A stretch of DNA of 64,000 nt, taken from IMG/VR virus record IMGVR_UViG_3300046463_000548, positions 89,707-153,706 of that record. One strand, written 5' to 3'. Position 1 is the first letter of the stretch; each line of letters starts with the position of its first letter. The notes under the pieces were generated by a model. It did not search any database. It saw only the letters and a list, made by a program, of their open reading frames with translations, and was not told the origin of the DNA. A program made the position numbers and the translations under genes. The stretch comes from a virus. Shown one piece after another: positions 2,950 through 53,956 of the stretch.

Positions 2950-3029
2950 AGGGCAGACCTTTCAAAAGGTGCGCCCTAACAATGAATGACAGGCGTTTGA
3001 ACCTCTAACGCCTGTCTGTGCGTTAGGGC

Positions 3030-3072
3030 AAAAAAGAGGGCGGCAAACCCTCGAAGGTCTTAGCGCCGCCCT
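3030..3072 (-). terminator. Rho-independent terminator
   Basis: AGGGCGGC...GCCGCCCT stem followed by a T6 tract on minus strand. Confidence 0.75.
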
Positions 3073-3172
3073 TGATACAGTTACATGCAAGCCCCCTTCC
3101 CTATGGGAATTCCGTGGCCCTTGCTCAAAGCCAACTTGCATGCACCTGTTCGAGTTACTATGAAATTGGAGG

Positions 3173-3631
3173 TCAGTTGCCCCAGATCATCAACAACGCC
3201 GGGTCTACCGGGATATAGCCATTAGGTGCTGGTCTCAGCAGTGATATGGAATCCGGCGCGAGCCGCCCCTGCGGAGGCAAGTAATAGCCGTTGTTTCTGG
3301 CGTCATCAAGAACGACCATCTTGGGATCGGCCTTCGGCACGTACAGGTCACGCTGAATCAGCGTCCGTGTGTTTTCCACTTCTTCCGGCCAGTGCTCTTC
3401 TGTCCGATAGGCAATCCAGTCCTTGGCTAGTTCCGGCTTTACGAGCAGGGTCAATCCGAGTCCTGAAAGCATACGTTCCGGCTGCTTGTCGAGACCAACG
3501 ACCACCACCTCTGAGTACTGTTGACGGGCGTTAGCCAGCAGCGTAAGACAGTCGCGAAGCATCTGCCCTTCAACTGCTGGCGTGTACTTCGTGTAAGTCA
3601 CACCGATGTAGAAAATACGAGGCTTTTTCAT
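3173..3631 (-). CDS. Hypothetical protein
   Basis: 152 aa ORF coupled (ATGA) to upstream gene. Confidence 0.7.
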   Translation of the reverse strand: MKKPRIFYIGVTYTKYTPAVEGQMLRDCLTLLANARQQYSEVVVVGLDKQPERMLSGLGLTLLVKPELAKDWIAYRTEEHWPEEVENTRTLIQRDLYVPKADPKMVVLDDARNNGYYLPPQGRLAPDSISLLRPAPNGYIPVDPALLMIWGN

Positions 3632-3855
3632 CTCTTTGTCCCCTTAGCTAGGGCTCGCGCTTTCTCCAGCGGAACCAGATAGACGCGATCATTTGATGTC
3701 AGAGTAAATCGCACCAGGTCAGGATCAGAGGACTGACGAACTCCAAACTTTGTACCTTTCTCCAAAGTAACACTGCTCGTTATCTTCAACGACCGGCCGC
3801 TGTAAGTGAACCAGTCGAAGTTTTCCTCAGTTTTCTTCAGAAGGAAGCTGTACAT
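3628..3855 (-). CDS. Hypothetical protein
   Basis: 75 aa ORF overlapping portal stop (TAATG). Confidence 0.65.
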   Translation of the reverse strand: MYSFLLKKTEENFDWFTYSGRSLKITSSVTLEKGTKFGVRQSSDPDLVRFTLTSNDRVYLVPLEKARALAKGTKR

Positions 3856-33946: not shown

Positions 33947-34259
33947 GCACGATGACTTTCACGGCCTTGTCGTCGTACAGCTTTTCCATATGTGGGTCTT
34001 TGATGCAGGTGACTTCCAGCCGCTGACCAATGTGCTTTTCGGTCCAGTCCTGGATAATCTTGGTTTTCTCTTCAACCGTCAGTTCGTCGTCTTCAGCGAC
34101 ACGTGCTGTGAATATCTTGACAGTCTTGCCCTGCGCGAGATAGCGCTTGATCAACGCCACGATCTTCGGTACGGGCTCACCAATGTGTTCCGAGCCTTTC
34201 CAGCCATCGTAGTAGGCCGTCGTGTTGTCCAAATCGAAACCGATCCAGCCGTCACTCAT
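33918..34259 (-). CDS. Capless HAD-superfamily hydrolase
   Basis: WIGFDLDNT, IFTAR, LYDDKA. Confidence 0.75.
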   Translation of the reverse strand: MSDGWIGFDLDNTTAYYDGWKGSEHIGEPVPKIVALIKRYLAQGKTVKIFTARVAEDDELTVEEKTKIIQDWTEKHIGQRLEVTCIKDPHMEKLYDDKAVKVIVRAADRLLGD

Positions 34260-34770
34260 GTCCCGCTCCGATATAAACAGGTATTGTCTGTTCAGCTAGC
34301 TTCATCCCTTCAGGGGAGATAGCGACGCTTGCGTTGTGCCGAAGTACATTCAATTCTTCGGGGCTGATCCAGGCATCAGGCTGACTTGCCCTAGGCCATT
34401 TGATCAATACCTCGTCTTCAATTGCACGTGCGAATTGACGCCATCCCCAAAGCTTCGCGAAGCTATCCAGACCACCGGGCATCGACTGCGCAACCGTGTC
34501 GATATCTGGATCGGAGAGTCGTGGCGGGTCTGCTTGGGGAGCAAGTTCCGGTTTGCTATCGGAAAGCTTCCTGATGTTCCAGGCTTCACCAATGTTGAAT
34601 GTCATATTGCGTGCGTACGAGAATTTCGGGCCCGTAGCTCCGCACCCGGTACACACGCAAAATAGATTGACGGCAGGTTGACCTTCGTAGCCCACTGTTA
34701 CGCCCTGCGAACCGCAGAAAGGGCATGAGTCAAAGACCGTTTGTGGTTGTTCCATCGATAGTGTTTCCAT
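34252..34770 (-). CDS. Protein with Lar-like N-terminal zinc ribbon
   Basis: CPFCG...CTGCGATGP...AWN.R. Confidence 0.6.
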   Translation of the reverse strand: METLSMEQPQTVFDSCPFCGSQGVTVGYEGQPAVNLFCVCTGCGATGPKFSYARNMTFNIGEAWNIRKLSDSKPELAPQADPPRLSDPDIDTVAQSMPGGLDSFAKLWGWRQFARAIEDEVLIKWPRASQPDAWISPEELNVLRHNASVAISPEGMKLAEQTIPVYIGAGHE

Positions 34771-36375
34771 TTAATCCTCCGCTAGAACGAGAGCCATCGA
34801 TTCAGAGGCTCTGGTTGCTGCTGTATAAAGATGATTCCAACGCTGATCGGCGAACACCTGTGATTCGTCAATGACCAGCGTCTTTCCGAATTGCGAGCCC
34901 TGCAACTTGTGCACGGTCCCCGCGTATGCGAACGTGAACGCGTCGGTTCCTGCAATGTCCTTCCAGTAGGGTTCGGGCAGACTCTCATCGAAGTGATGAG
35001 TCGAACACACTGTGTCGATAATCACGGGTGAGCCATTCGCATCGAACAGGTCAAGAGCACGGACCTTGAAGTGCAGACCCTCAACGCGCGTAGCTTCGAA
35101 CCCAAGTTCTGGCCTACGGTGGTCTATGAGCTTCATCATCGGCTTGATTTCAGGCGTGGAGCACGTCCACTGCGTACCGTTCAGGAAGCCGTTCTGCTTG
35201 TTGTTCTTCGTGCACATCAGCTTGTCGCCGCGCACAGGGAACTGCGTATCAACGTCGAATTTCCCGCTCAGGATTCGGTGGCGTCGATTCAGGGTGTGTC
35301 GCGTGCGGTTCAGTCCAACGATGACCTGATCGCTGCCGATGATCATTTCATCGGTGACCTTGAAGCCGGGGCGGTACACGCGAGATTCGCCGTATCTACC
35401 GGGCTTTGGTAATCGCCCGTTGCGAATCTCTGTCGCTAGCCAGATCAACGGATTTTCGGCCGCTACCCGCTCCACCTCTGTTAGGGTGATGTCTGCGTCG
35501 CCACGCGTGAAGAATCCTTCGCCCTTGATAGGCTTCACCTGACCGGGGTCTCCCAGCACGAGAATCGGGATACCGAACGAAAGTAGATCAGCCCCTAGCT
35601 CGTCATTGACCATAGACATTTCGTCACAGATCAGCAGCTTCGCCTCGCACAGCGGAGACTCAGGGTTTAGGGTGAATCCCTTCGCCTTGCCCGTTACGTA
35701 ATCGATAACTGGCTTGTAGATCAGCGAGTGCAGGGTAGATGCACCTGCACAGCCTTTTGACGCTAGGACAGACGCAGCTTTGCCGGTGTATGCAGCGAAC
35801 AGGACTTGCCCTCGTTCGCCACCGGACTCGCCGTTCTCGATACACCACGCAATCTCTTTGGCTAGTGTCGTCTTGCCGGTGCCCGCGAAACCGAACAGCC
35901 TGAAAACCTGCTTGCGACCATTTGACTTGTACCACTTGAATACAGAGCGCAGCGCTTTCGACTGCTGCCCGTTCCACTTCAGATTGGGTCTATCGGCTAC
36001 AACGTGCGAGCCGACTGCCGCGATCCCGCCGAACAGTTCGTCTAACGTTGGGTCGGGTACCGGTTGCGGTGGTTCGTCGTGCTTTGAAGGTTCCCAAAAA
36101 TCCGCAGGATCATTGAGAACAAACGCGGTGATCAGGTCGTGCAAAAGAAGATAGCGCGAGTCCTCTTTCAACACAGGAGGATCGCGCTTCTCAAGTACAG
36201 ATCGTCTTCGAAAAATGTTGTGTGGATCAGCTTCAAGGTGGACCATGCAGGAAGAAAATACGATACGTGTAGTTTGCTTCTGCAGGTCCAATACCTGGTC
36301 AGTCGTCAGAGTCGTTCTGAGTGCAGCATCTTGGATGAGCGAACGAGTAACGCTTTTTGTTTTGTTCCGTAACAC
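34771..36375 (-). CDS. RecD/Dda-like SF1B helicase
   Basis: GFAGTGKTT, AYTGKAA, DEMSMV, LGDPGQ, TVHKLQGSQF, YTAATRA. Confidence 0.9.
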   Translation of the reverse strand: MLRNKTKSVTRSLIQDAALRTTLTTDQVLDLQKQTTRIVFSSCMVHLEADPHNIFRRRSVLEKRDPPVLKEDSRYLLLHDLITAFVLNDPADFWEPSKHDEPPQPVPDPTLDELFGGIAAVGSHVVADRPNLKWNGQQSKALRSVFKWYKSNGRKQVFRLFGFAGTGKTTLAKEIAWCIENGESGGERGQVLFAAYTGKAASVLASKGCAGASTLHSLIYKPVIDYVTGKAKGFTLNPESPLCEAKLLICDEMSMVNDELGADLLSFGIPILVLGDPGQVKPIKGEGFFTRGDADITLTEVERVAAENPLIWLATEIRNGRLPKPGRYGESRVYRPGFKVTDEMIIGSDQVIVGLNRTRHTLNRRHRILSGKFDVDTQFPVRGDKLMCTKNNKQNGFLNGTQWTCSTPEIKPMMKLIDHRRPELGFEATRVEGLHFKVRALDLFDANGSPVIIDTVCSTHHFDESLPEPYWKDIAGTDAFTFAYAGTVHKLQGSQFGKTLVIDESQVFADQRWNHLYTAATRASESMALVLAED

Positions 36376-37866: not shown

Positions 37867-38483
37867 GCTATTTTCTTTCTTCTGAACACTTCATAGTCAA
37901 ATGTGCAGGAGAAAGAGCGAATGCAGAAATCGTAGCTGAATCTGCATCCGCACTTCGGACGTTAATCCCAATCACATAGAGCAAGTCATCAAGGCTAGTT
38001 ACGATAACAAGAAAAGCCGACCCTCTACCGCTGAGGTACTCACCTCCCAAGATCACTTCAGCCGACAAATGATCTAGGGCAGGTGAGACGGGATTCGAAC
38101 CCGCGTCTTTCGACTTGAACCAGTGCTCTCATCCATTGGGTGCACTGGCAACCTTCCGCCTGCTTTAAACTGCGATTGCTTAATACAATGAGATTTGGGT
38201 AATACGATCAATGAAAGTTGCCGCTCGCTGCCGCACGTCTACCAATTCCGTCACCTCTGCACCAAACACGCTGCCATACTCAAAACCGGGTTATCGAGAA
38301 CCGGCTCTGATTAGAGCAGACGACCCAAACTTTTCCCAAGAAAAGATCGCTACCGTGGGAATCCACCTCCCGTCGAGAAAGGTGGCACGACTACATACAG
38401 CAGCGTGTTTGGTGCAGAGGGGTGGAGTCGAACCACCACTGAGCTTCTACTATCAACGATAACGATCAACGCTACCCATTCTC
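37830..38483 (-). ncRNA. Large structured ncRNA with two circularly permuted tRNA-like (YrlA-like) modules
   Basis: Promoter motif 38484-38490; two T-arm/acceptor/D-arm units in permuted order (38190-38483 and 37969-38178); terminator 37830-37866. Confidence 0.75.
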
Positions 38484-38490
38484 TATTTAC
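38484..38490 (-). promoter_or_regulatory. Phage promoter motif GTAAATA (representative of at least 17 copies)
   Basis: Minus: 14947, 25020, 27108, 31130, 37771, 38484, 39520, 42621, 47128, 48830, 51257, 53446; plus: 53902, 54796, 57229, 61351, 63043. Confidence 0.7.
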
Positions 38491-38681
38491 TGCTGACTCT
38501 TGGAATCAAATCTGAACGTGACCTGAATTTCAACAAGCCCAGTCGTCTCGTCAGCTTCCGCGTCCTCCATTGCAGGGGCAATCGGATAACAATCCGTGAA
38601 GGTCATTTGCCTGTCATCTGTCGTTAGCACCGTGAGATTCGGCCCTTCCCACCACAAACGTTTGACGCGGAGTTCGACCAT
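38487..38681 (-). CDS. Small hypothetical protein
   Basis: 64 aa ORF starting 2 nt after upstream stop; its stop overlaps the GTAAATA motif. Confidence 0.55.
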   Translation of the reverse strand: MVELRVKRLWWEGPNLTVLTTDDRQMTFTDCYPIAPAMEDAEADETTGLVEIQVTFRFDSKSQQ

Positions 38682-38683
38682 GA

Positions 38684-39478
38684 TTAAATCTGGTTGCTGG
38701 CTGGCGGATTACGCAGCGGCTCAAGGATCACTGCAATCAGGTCGCGGCCGATGTTCTGCGTCATCACAGGCACCGAGTTCGCGCGGGTCCGAGCCTGCTT
38801 AACAGCCGTGATCAGTTCGTCCAGAGTCGCGATAACCTGCGCCTTCTGGATTGCGGTCGTCGCGCCCGACACGTTTTCCTGCGTGAACGTGCCGATGATC
38901 TTGTCGCTGGTCACTTCCTTGACCTGTGCCGGGTGCTTGTCCGAGTGCGGGTACAGGACCACGGGCACAGTCTGCTTTTCGGTCTTGGTCGTGATCGACG
39001 GATGTGCTGCCTTCCACGTACCGGCTTGTGCCGCGTTGGGGTCGATGCGCCAATCCTTCGATGCGTCGAGCGTCGGGATTTGCATCGCGAGCTTGCGCAG
39101 TTCGCCCAGACGCACTTCGAGACCCATCAACTCATCGACCGGCACATTCTCCGCGAATGTCTGTCCACGGAATTCGATGTTGGCGAGAGCGGTCGTGTTG
39201 GTCAGGTTCTTCGACGCCAGAACGTCTTCGGCCTTCGCCCAGTAGCTCAGGAAGTAGTCCAGAGTCGTGAGCACCGTTGTCGGCAGCGTCTTATCCTGGC
39301 GCGCGGCCTTTTCGAGGTCTTCGTTGTTCGGATCGTCACCGAGCAGCTTCAGGGTCTTCGTGAAGCCCGTGAAGTAGTTGTCACCCTTTTCAAATTTCGT
39401 CAGGGTGTCCTTAGCCATCGCGTCGCGCGAATTTGTTGCCGTCTTTTCAGCGGCCAACAGTTCATGAAGTTGAGCCAT
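38684..39478 (-). CDS. Uncharacterised helical protein upstream of the large ncRNA
   Basis: 264 aa from MAQLHELLAAEK; IPTLD, HPAQVKEV..D..IG, AVKQAR.RAN; own GTAAATA motif at 39520. Confidence 0.8.
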   Translation of the reverse strand: MAQLHELLAAEKTATNSRDAMAKDTLTKFEKGDNYFTGFTKTLKLLGDDPNNEDLEKAARQDKTLPTTVLTTLDYFLSYWAKAEDVLASKNLTNTTALANIEFRGQTFAENVPVDELMGLEVRLGELRKLAMQIPTLDASKDWRIDPNAAQAGTWKAAHPSITTKTEKQTVPVVLYPHSDKHPAQVKEVTSDKIIGTFTQENVSGATTAIQKAQVIATLDELITAVKQARTRANSVPVMTQNIGRDLIAVILEPLRNPPASNQI

Positions 39479-39559
39479 GTGTGTTTGTATGAGCAAGAGT
39501 TATGGGGCCTTACACTTCTTATTTACTGGAGCATCCGCGTTTCCGCACAATTATTTTAG

Positions 39560-41805: not shown

Positions 41806-41823
41806 TTTACTGATTGAAACTCG

Positions 41824-41982
41824 AAGGTCGGGCAGGATTCGAACCTGCGGACGGTATGGGAAAGTCGGACCTTCGACACCGATAGCCTGATCAGGAGCAA
41901 CCGCCTACGCGTTGATGCTCTGGTCAGACAGTCCCAACCCGTTCTTGTCTCGGTCACCATTAAGCCACTCTGGCACCGACCC
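41824..41982 (-). ncRNA. tRNA-like RNA with a ~110-nt domain replacing the anticodon/variable arms
   Basis: GGGTCGG/CCGACCT acceptor, CCAGAGTGGCTTAATGG D-arm, GCAGG-TTCGAAT-CCTGC T-arm; no encoded CCA. Confidence 0.7.
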
Positions 41983-41991
41983 TCACAACTC

Positions 41992-42608: not shown

Positions 42609-42626
42609 CCTTCACTAACCTATTTA

Positions 42627-42779
42627 CTACAGCGCTTCGGTTTCCCGAAACTTTCTTTGCAAATCTTTCTGCTGTGCCCGACGCTGCTTCGACTGAACGT
42701 TGCGCCCGTGCTTTCCACGCTCGCGAAACATCATCTCTGCAATCATCGGGTTGCGCGGCTTCATCAGATTGTCCACCAC
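42627..42779 (-). CDS. Small basic protein (50 aa)
   Basis: Own translation ...MKPRNPMIAEMMFRERGKHGRNVQSKQRRAQQKDLQRKFRETEAL; AAGGT RBS. Confidence 0.55.
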   Translation of the reverse strand: MVDNLMKPRNPMIAEMMFRERGKHGRNVQSKQRRAQQKDLQRKFRETEAL

Positions 42780-53430: not shown

Positions 53431-53956
53431 GATGCCTACACTTTCTATTTACTGCTCGAATGTTAGAAGCGTCACGGTGGACTTTATATATACAAACGAA
53501 TCTAACATCGTGCTACGCACAACCTTCAGAAAGTGTTTGAGGTCATGAACGCGTGATAGTCCCTAGATCGAGCAAAGAACAAAGAGAATTCGAACCGCAG
53601 GAGCGAAGCGACGCGGAATGAGGTGGAGCGGAGCGATCACCTCTCATCGAGGAAGCAGGGACCTTTCTTGCTTTCTGGATTCGATGAGAAAGTGTGCAAC
53701 TGAGCACTTCGGCGCATGCGCGCCTTCGCGCTCTATTCCGTGCACAGAGTCAACGCTACGCGTTTGTGAATTCTTCTTTTCCTTTTTCTCTCCGCTCCCC
53801 TGTTGGTCCACGACGCGTCAGGAATCGAAGGGCACGTCAGGAGCTTCGCTAACGCCGTTTTCACGCTTCTACCCGCGCTCTCGTATATGTATTACGCGCG
53901 AGTAAATAAAAGGGTGAGAAGGTCCGTCTTCATCATTCATCTTTATAGGTACGCAA
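53431..53956. other. Non-coding strand-switch region with divergent promoter motifs; candidate replication origin
   Basis: No convincing ORF; GTAAATA at 53446(-) and 53902(+); AT-rich patch and GCGAAGCG/CTTCGC-type elements. Confidence 0.4.

Follow-up and report, generated by a model that had tools for sequence, protein, structure and literature searches.

A DUF7873 gene of a phiRSL1-like phage adjoins an RNA with two permuted tRNA-like modules, a candidate Ro60-independent ribonucleoprotein

Introduction

To our knowledge, Ro60 is the only partner protein known so far for Y RNAs with tRNA-like domains. In the 64,000-nt stretch of viral DNA analyzed here (the window; positions 89,707 to 153,706 of IMG/VR record IMGVR_UViG_3300046463_000548), an RNA containing two circularly permuted tRNA-like modules lies 3′ of a gene for a DUF7873 protein. 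An initial annotation of this DNA had proposed that protein and RNA form a ribonucleoprotein (RNP) analogous to the Ro60–Y RNA particle with a different protein. The question is whether the two genes belong together, and if so, whether such a particle is the best account of them.

The window comes from a phage related to phiRSL1, a Ralstonia jumbo phage, and the two share 70% DNA identity across the stretch. The source viral record is 153.7 kb long and judged 63% complete, and the gene strand switches near 53.5 kb in the window.

Results

The protein belongs to DUF7873

The gene occupies 38684–39478 (−) and encodes 264 amino acids plus a stop codon from the ATG at 39478, while the open reading frame, 38684–39496 (−), gives 270 aa from a TTG at 39496. 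The initial annotation had correctly placed this 264-aa protein, with the residues it quoted, upstream of the RNA on the same strand. Residues 1–252 match positions 1–242 of the 244-position Pfam profile DUF7873 (PF25283) at 220 bits (E 5e-65), and a six-frame search scores the same protein at 219.5 bits; the curated cut-off is 27 bits, well passed across the full profile. DUF7873 is the only Pfam domain found in the protein, with no TROVE or vWA domain. ORF270 of phiRSL1, annotated as hypothetical, is 67% identical to it.

PHROGs and NCBIfam gave nothing useful with this protein, an ESM Atlas search returned DUF7873 clusters only, and our literature search found no paper naming DUF7873. A profile search collected 2630 clusters at 50% identity, bearing out the earlier impression of a widespread family. 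Among the 150 clusters listed of these, the lengths are 243–280 aa, and no fused or longer forms occur.

An AlphaFold2 model of the 264-aa protein (pLDDT 87, pTM 0.60) contains long helices, as the earlier description of a helical protein had it, but also a long β-hairpin, which that description had missed. The hairpin tip is the invariant DKHPAQVK. Structure prediction and Foldseek had been suggested; with Foldseek, the model matched nothing at E ≤ 0.001 in PDB and BFVD, and a profile search of PDB sequences gave nothing significant. The top match of VIA-align (3kdq_A, Z 9.1, rmsd 7.0) was set aside as within the range usual for helical models. The fold searches found no known nuclease, transferase or RNA-binding fold for DUF7873, and Ro60 is absent from their lists, which is a missing match and no more.

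Invariant polar residues of the family are H182, Q185, N94 and N234, and E121 and D192 are near-invariant. Several Lys and Arg and four aromatic residues are also conserved. The conserved Lys, Arg and aromatic residues would fit a local RNA-binding face as well as a catalytic site.

Incidentally, a DUF7873 homologue at 2995–3711 of locus L036 has an in-frame stop after codon 13, with both RNA modules downstream intact. A recoded codon, a sequencing error or decay into a pseudogene could explain this.

The RNA consists of two permuted tRNA-like modules

The RNA 3′ of the DUF7873 gene is ~520 nt long, is on the same strand, and comprises two circularly permuted tRNA-like modules, each in the order of T arm, loop-closed 7-bp acceptor stem and D arm. 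When both strands of the window were scanned, only these two permuted modules were found, at 38235–38437 and 38022–38104 (−). The predicted fold is stronger than that of shuffled controls, with a z of −6.2 for a 508-nt stretch. Encoded CCA is present in many module copies across loci.

Domain A (38190–38483, −), delimited by scanner, sequence and fold, is a tRNA-Leu-like permuted module. Its T arm (38421–38437) is followed by the acceptor 3′ strand CCTCTGC (38414–38420) and then ACCA. An insert of ~153 nt (38261–38413) closes the acceptor stem, whose 5′ strand GCAGAGG (38254–38260) leads to a D arm of tRNA-Leu type (38235–38251), all on the − strand and with a flanking closing stem besides. 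ARAGORN mistook the 5′ part of domain A for a 'tRNA-Asp(atc)' at 38410–38493. The acceptor-closing insert is ~150 nt both here and in phage locus L006 (4027–4170) versus 10–30 nt in phiRSL1 and most relatives; its ends are conserved (CTGCTGTATGTA ... GAGTATGG), and its middle is divergent and branched.

Domain B (38010–38118, −) is matched with 57.3 bits (E 7e-14) by R1, a covariance model that we trained on 44 phage modules, phage RNAs only. On the − strand, its T arm (38088–38104) and acceptor 3′ strand CTCACCT (38081–38087) are followed by a 35-nt closing loop, the acceptor 5′ strand AGGTGAG (38039–38045) and the D arm CCTCAGCGGTAGAGG of GCUCAG type (38022–38036). The variable loop of this domain is tRNA-like, and its closing helix resembles an anticodon stem but lacks an anticodon loop. 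Sequence comparison shows that a putative 3′ tail of the RNA (37950–38009, −) is conserved with phiRSL1 (TTATCGTAACTAG ... GATTGGG).

A common short repeat was considered as a protein-binding track and rejected. ATCGT occurs four to five times here and in a few close relatives, and no word recurs throughout the loci.

The gene and the RNA are linked across phages and bacteria

For the survey of phages, a scanner was set to require, besides a T arm and a D arm, a 7-nt 3′ strand that finds a perfect 7-bp partner within 300 nt. A module is present at each of the 41 phage loci examined, at 40 of them according to the scanner; L006, missed by the scanner, shows both modules by eye. For 35 phage loci whose proteins are 28–67% identical to the window protein, the scanner reported a same-strand module 50–260 nt past the stop codon in 34, and a second module at +250 to +340 in about twenty. 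Modules were also found in 6/6 further cultured phages (of Rhizobium, Gordonia twice, Arthrobacter, Pseudanabaena and Rhodococcus), in which the DUF7873 gene lies inside an annotated tRNA cluster, beside an unannotated gap.

When R1 was applied to 57 bacterial DUF7873 loci, 53 were matched, 51 of them directly downstream of the gene, and all 100 matches at E ≤ 0.01 were on the gene's strand. Because these 57 loci had been chosen via the HPAQV motif, two further samples were drawn by the Pfam model alone. In an actinomycete order, the gene is present in 42 of 151 genomes, and the RNA is directly downstream in 30/30 loci fetched. In Myxococcota, 13 of 201 genomes have the gene, and the RNA is adjacent in 11 of the 12 full-length genes. 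Thus, in the Pfam-only samples combined, the RNA adjoins 41/42 full-length genes. A few loci (L047, L051 and L170) have no RNA nearby.

The pairing itself is conserved. In 55 bacterial matches, 99.8% of the T-stem and acceptor-stem cells of the alignment pair, compared with 67% when shuffled and 43–52% when the partners were slid. Two-sided changes number 201 versus 49 in shuffles, for an alignment fitted to the model and hence somewhat favourable.

Gene and RNA co-occur in phages of at least six host groups and in many bacterial phyla, with one conserved order as a rule. The linkage is beyond chance by a wide margin in the phage, the motif-picked bacterial and the Pfam-only samples, as the initial annotation had expected of the homologues.

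Genome-wide co-occurrence of protein and RNA was also tried with R1 and abandoned, because the model also matches tandem tRNA genes, tRNA arrays and genuine Ro-type modules; it scored in 110 of 121 cyanobacterial genomes. In the genome of L051, seeming RNA copies on other contigs are an ordinary tRNA array. In the Solirubrobacterales genome of L047, two tandem permuted modules (L133, 2280–2560), tetraloop-closed and each preceded by the repeat GGGCCGGAGTTCGAYGGTTATCGG, sit on a different contig from the partial DUF7873 match of that genome. A 215-aa ORF upstream of these modules has no Pfam match.

We consider that the DUF7873 protein and the adjacent RNA might constitute a Ro60-independent RNP. 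Judged from sequence, this reading stands at about an even chance, and it is weighed below against three others.

The RNA is a gene of its own

A promoter-like word, AGTAAATA, is located at 39520–39527 (−), 42 nt before the DUF7873 ATG, where the initial annotation had noted a motif belonging to the gene. It had overlooked a second AGTAAATA at 38484–38491 (−), at the 5′ edge of the RNA. The window contains 16 copies versus 0.49 expected, and every copy is on the strand of the local genes. GTGTAAG usually follows a few bases after AGTAAATA, and the extended word AGTAAATA-N4-5-GTGTAAG precedes genes, tRNAs and the RNA, for example at 42621–42628 (−) and 53901–53908 (+). Its overrepresentation, its strand match and the usual GTGTAAG nearby make the word very likely a phage promoter, and probably the one used by this phage group. 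It is also found before the RNA in phiRSL1 and L006.

Between the DUF7873 gene and the RNA lies a single ORF, a putative orphan of 64 aa (38487–38681, −), and no terminator-like site was found on the − strand, both in agreement with what had been noted before. The 64-aa ORF has no match in Pfam, PHROG or NCBIfam and no database match other than itself, and it is missing at the same place in phiRSL1. The link does not rest on co-transcription for want of a terminator, given that the RNA here carries a promoter word of its own and that some bacteria encode it on the other strand.

Three myxobacterial genomes have the neighbouring RNA inverted relative to the gene, with a divergent arrangement in L171 and L174 and a convergent one in L173; in the close relative L172 the layout is the usual one. 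In the cyanobacterial locus L135, a Uma2-family gene and another ORF are inserted between the gene and the RNA, which is 1.9 kb off. Other bacterial neighbours differ by lineage, and none other than the RNA is conserved; in Nostocaceae, for example, the genes around the pair are for a transporter, for homocysteine synthesis and for FtsH. Because of its own promoter word, its opposite strand in three genomes, the inserted genes in L135 and the lack of any other shared neighbour, the RNA is a separate gene and not the 3′ end of the DUF7873 gene. The inverted loci are an added argument for the RNA acting in trans. Since the bacterial neighbours are unrelated, the pair is a self-contained two-gene unit.

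These layouts bear on the possibility that the RNA is a cis-acting or processing element without protein contact, serving as RNase P/RNase Z punctuation, as a transcript stabiliser, or simply as extra members of the tRNA cluster. Such an element would explain why the RNA is usually directly downstream on the same strand with no terminator, and its 7-bp acceptor stems and many encoded CCA would suit it, as a stem of this kind is an RNase P target in M. smegmatis YrlA (PMC4201824). On the other hand, the RNA has a promoter word of its own, it is still adjacent when placed on the opposite strand or 1.9 kb off behind inserted genes, and the pairing persists in bacteria without a tRNA cluster there. 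We regard this explanation as quite unlikely.

Ro60 is not the neighbour of this RNA

No TROVE gene was found in the 153.7-kb record, although at 63% completeness this phage may encode a Ro60 elsewhere. TROVE is missing from seven of eight complete phages with the pair (phiRSL1, KpLz-2_45, Vibrio phage D505, Gordonia phages Ronaldo and Phendrix, Arthrobacter phage Mimi and Pseudanabaena phage PA-SR01), and only Rhizobium phage RHph_Y65 has a TROVE gene, ~5.5 kb from DUF7873. The protein beside the RNA is other than Ro60, as had been proposed.

The likeness to Y RNA, which had also been claimed, holds for module B, which matches Rfam YrlA (RF02553) with 30.1 bits (E 2.7e-4), over model positions 23–85 only and below the gathering score of 69. 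The Ro60-binding motif GNCGAAN0-1G precedes 6 of 136 modules, equal to the 4.4% background, and the intended positive control, cyanobacterial loci beside a probable Ro60, likewise gave 0/18. GTCGAAAG occurs before module B here and not in phiRSL1.

In M. smegmatis YrlA, RNase P cuts the 7-bp acceptor stem, and CCA is then added (Chen et al. 2014, PMC4201824). The RNA here resembles YrlA in its tRNA mimicry: both have T and D arms and a loop-closed acceptor stem, which here is of 7 bp as in the M. smegmatis RNase P substrate. In both systems the RNA gene lies beside one protein gene, usually on the same strand, and tandem RNAs occur. However, the neighbour here is DUF7873, with ~250 aa of helices and a β-hairpin, instead of a 500-aa TROVE ring with vWA. 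GNCGAAN0-1G does not seem to be conserved, with the positive control lacking it too, and the Rfam score is under the gathering cut-off. A TROVE gene within ~4 kb on the same strand, which our test of YrlA membership also asked for, was not present. Moreover, two complete tRNA-like domains share one locus here, the first Leu-like with discriminator A.

Eleven cyanobacterial loci (L122–L132), matched by R1 in genomes without DUF7873, show another arrangement, with a single permuted module between a 66-aa ORF (11/11 loci) and a ~480-aa protein (10/11). On the strength of a weak C-terminal vWA match and of PDB sequence matches to TROVE proteins only, this protein is taken as a probable divergent Ro60, missed by the Pfam TROVE model in a six-frame search. 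As such modules lie beside a probable Ro60 as well as beside DUF7873, RNAs of this shape would serve two different neighbouring proteins.

Could the RNA be an ordinary YrlA for a Ro60 of the host or encoded elsewhere, with DUF7873 a bystander? The YrlA match of module B, the two genes carried together by RHph_Y65 and the similar cyanobacterial modules beside the probable Ro60 are in its favour. The phages lacking TROVE and the Ro60-binding motif at background frequency (with its equally empty positive control) go against it, and adjacency in ~97% of loci across phyla is not expected for a bystander. We consider this reading very improbable.

Comparison with other RNA–protein modules

Permuted, two-piece tmRNA, which acts with SmpB, also has the T arm and acceptor 3′ strand ahead of the acceptor 5′ strand and D arm, and the RNA weakly matches Rfam beta_tmRNA and tmRNA_permuted. 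However, these scores are far under the cut-offs (24.4 vs 84 bits and 11.4 vs 47 bits), and the module A acceptor stem GCAGAGG/CCTCTGC has A3-U70, not the alanine identity pair G3-U70. Neither a tag reading frame nor pseudoknots were detected in the RNA, and ARAGORN called no tmRNA.

Burroughs and Aravind reportedly described, in 2016, an SPFH/Band-7 module with a 'novel tRNA-like molecule'. As reported, it shares with the present pair the idea of a Ro-independent tRNA-like RNA with another protein partner, in RNA-repair contexts of phages and bacteria. However, Band-7 occurs in only one of five complete DUF7873 phages and not in this record, and RtcB is absent here, which ruled out both as general partners. 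A 2026 preprint on three tRNA-mimic families concerns other RNAs.

Type III toxin–antitoxin systems (ToxIN) are similar in being two-part modules of a protein gene and an adjacent structured RNA gene in bacteria and phages. Their RNA is a short-repeat array upstream of the toxin, whereas two tRNA-shaped domains, usually downstream, are found here, and no toxicity or nuclease fold is known for DUF7873.

By analogy with these systems, DUF7873 might be an enzyme or toxin acting on tRNAs or tRNA-like substrates, with the RNA as its substrate, decoy or inhibitor. The invariant His, Gln and two Asn (H182, Q185, N94 and N234) could equally suit an enzyme, and the near-invariant E121 and D192 add to this. 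So do the tRNA mimicry of the RNA, the two-gene module without another conserved partner and the location in phage tRNA clusters. Against this, Nostocaceae have one copy of the gene, at a constant chromosomal site among housekeeping genes, unlike mobile toxin–antitoxin modules; the RNA is not a tandem short-repeat array upstream of the gene as in ToxIN; and no known nuclease or transferase fold was found. An enzyme or toxin is, in our estimate, unlikely.

Discussion

A possible particle and its role

In the RNP reading, which we favour, the partner of DUF7873 would be the neighbouring structured RNA with its two tRNA mimics, loop-closed at their acceptor stems and devoid of an anticodon loop. 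The protein would bind it probably via the invariant DKHPAQVK hairpin tip together with the conserved Lys, Arg and aromatic residues. Points against this reading are that the family is slightly acidic and not basic (median pI 6.0), that the protein matches no known RNA-binding fold, and that a few loci have no RNA nearby.

The particle may present its tRNA-shaped domains to tRNA-handling enzymes. RNase P and 3′-end processing could then act on the closing loops, which is plausible because of the 7-bp stems and the frequent encoded CCA, by analogy with M. smegmatis YrlA. The pair is always inside the tRNA cluster in phages, therefore a role in the tRNA pool is suggested. The pair might sustain that pool during infection, by way of quality control or protection or by titrating a tRNA-directed factor. 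A fuller version would be a widespread Ro60-independent RNP of thousands of bacterial and phage lineages, in which RNase P and trimming open the stems into CCA-ended split tRNA-like pieces, and by which phages safeguard or manipulate the tRNA pool. We put this version forward tentatively, as somewhat short of an even chance.

If the reading is true, tRNA mimics of the Y RNA kind have a second, unrelated partner protein, and the particle, if formed, would represent a class of RNP that is new, and common in bacteria and phages. The linkage ties an uncharacterised, fold-orphan family of ~2,600 clusters at 50% identity to an RNA of that shape about as tightly as any gene pair in comparative genomics, and this tie spans jumbo phages, small phages, cyanobacteria, actinomycetes, myxobacteria and planctomycetes. 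Because the phage pair is always among tRNA genes, it is relevant to the ways in which phages shield translation when the host attacks tRNAs.

Other features near the locus

A stretch of ~164 nt at 41822–41985 (−), upstream of tRNA-Asp(gtc), contains the perfect T arm GCAGGTTCGAATCCTGC and a ~90-nt interior enclosed by the 7-bp acceptor pairing GGGTCGG/CCGACCT. A large insert in a tRNA or tRNA-like gene could account for it. Neither ARAGORN nor Rfam tRNA made a call at this place, and R1 scores 38.9 bits there by joining the T arm to the next tRNA.

On the other side, a few kb downstream of the RNA, a RecD-like SF1B helicase gene (34771–36375, −) adjoins a gene (34252–34770, −) for a protein with a Lar-family restriction-alleviation domain, matched at E 2e-7, below the cut-off.
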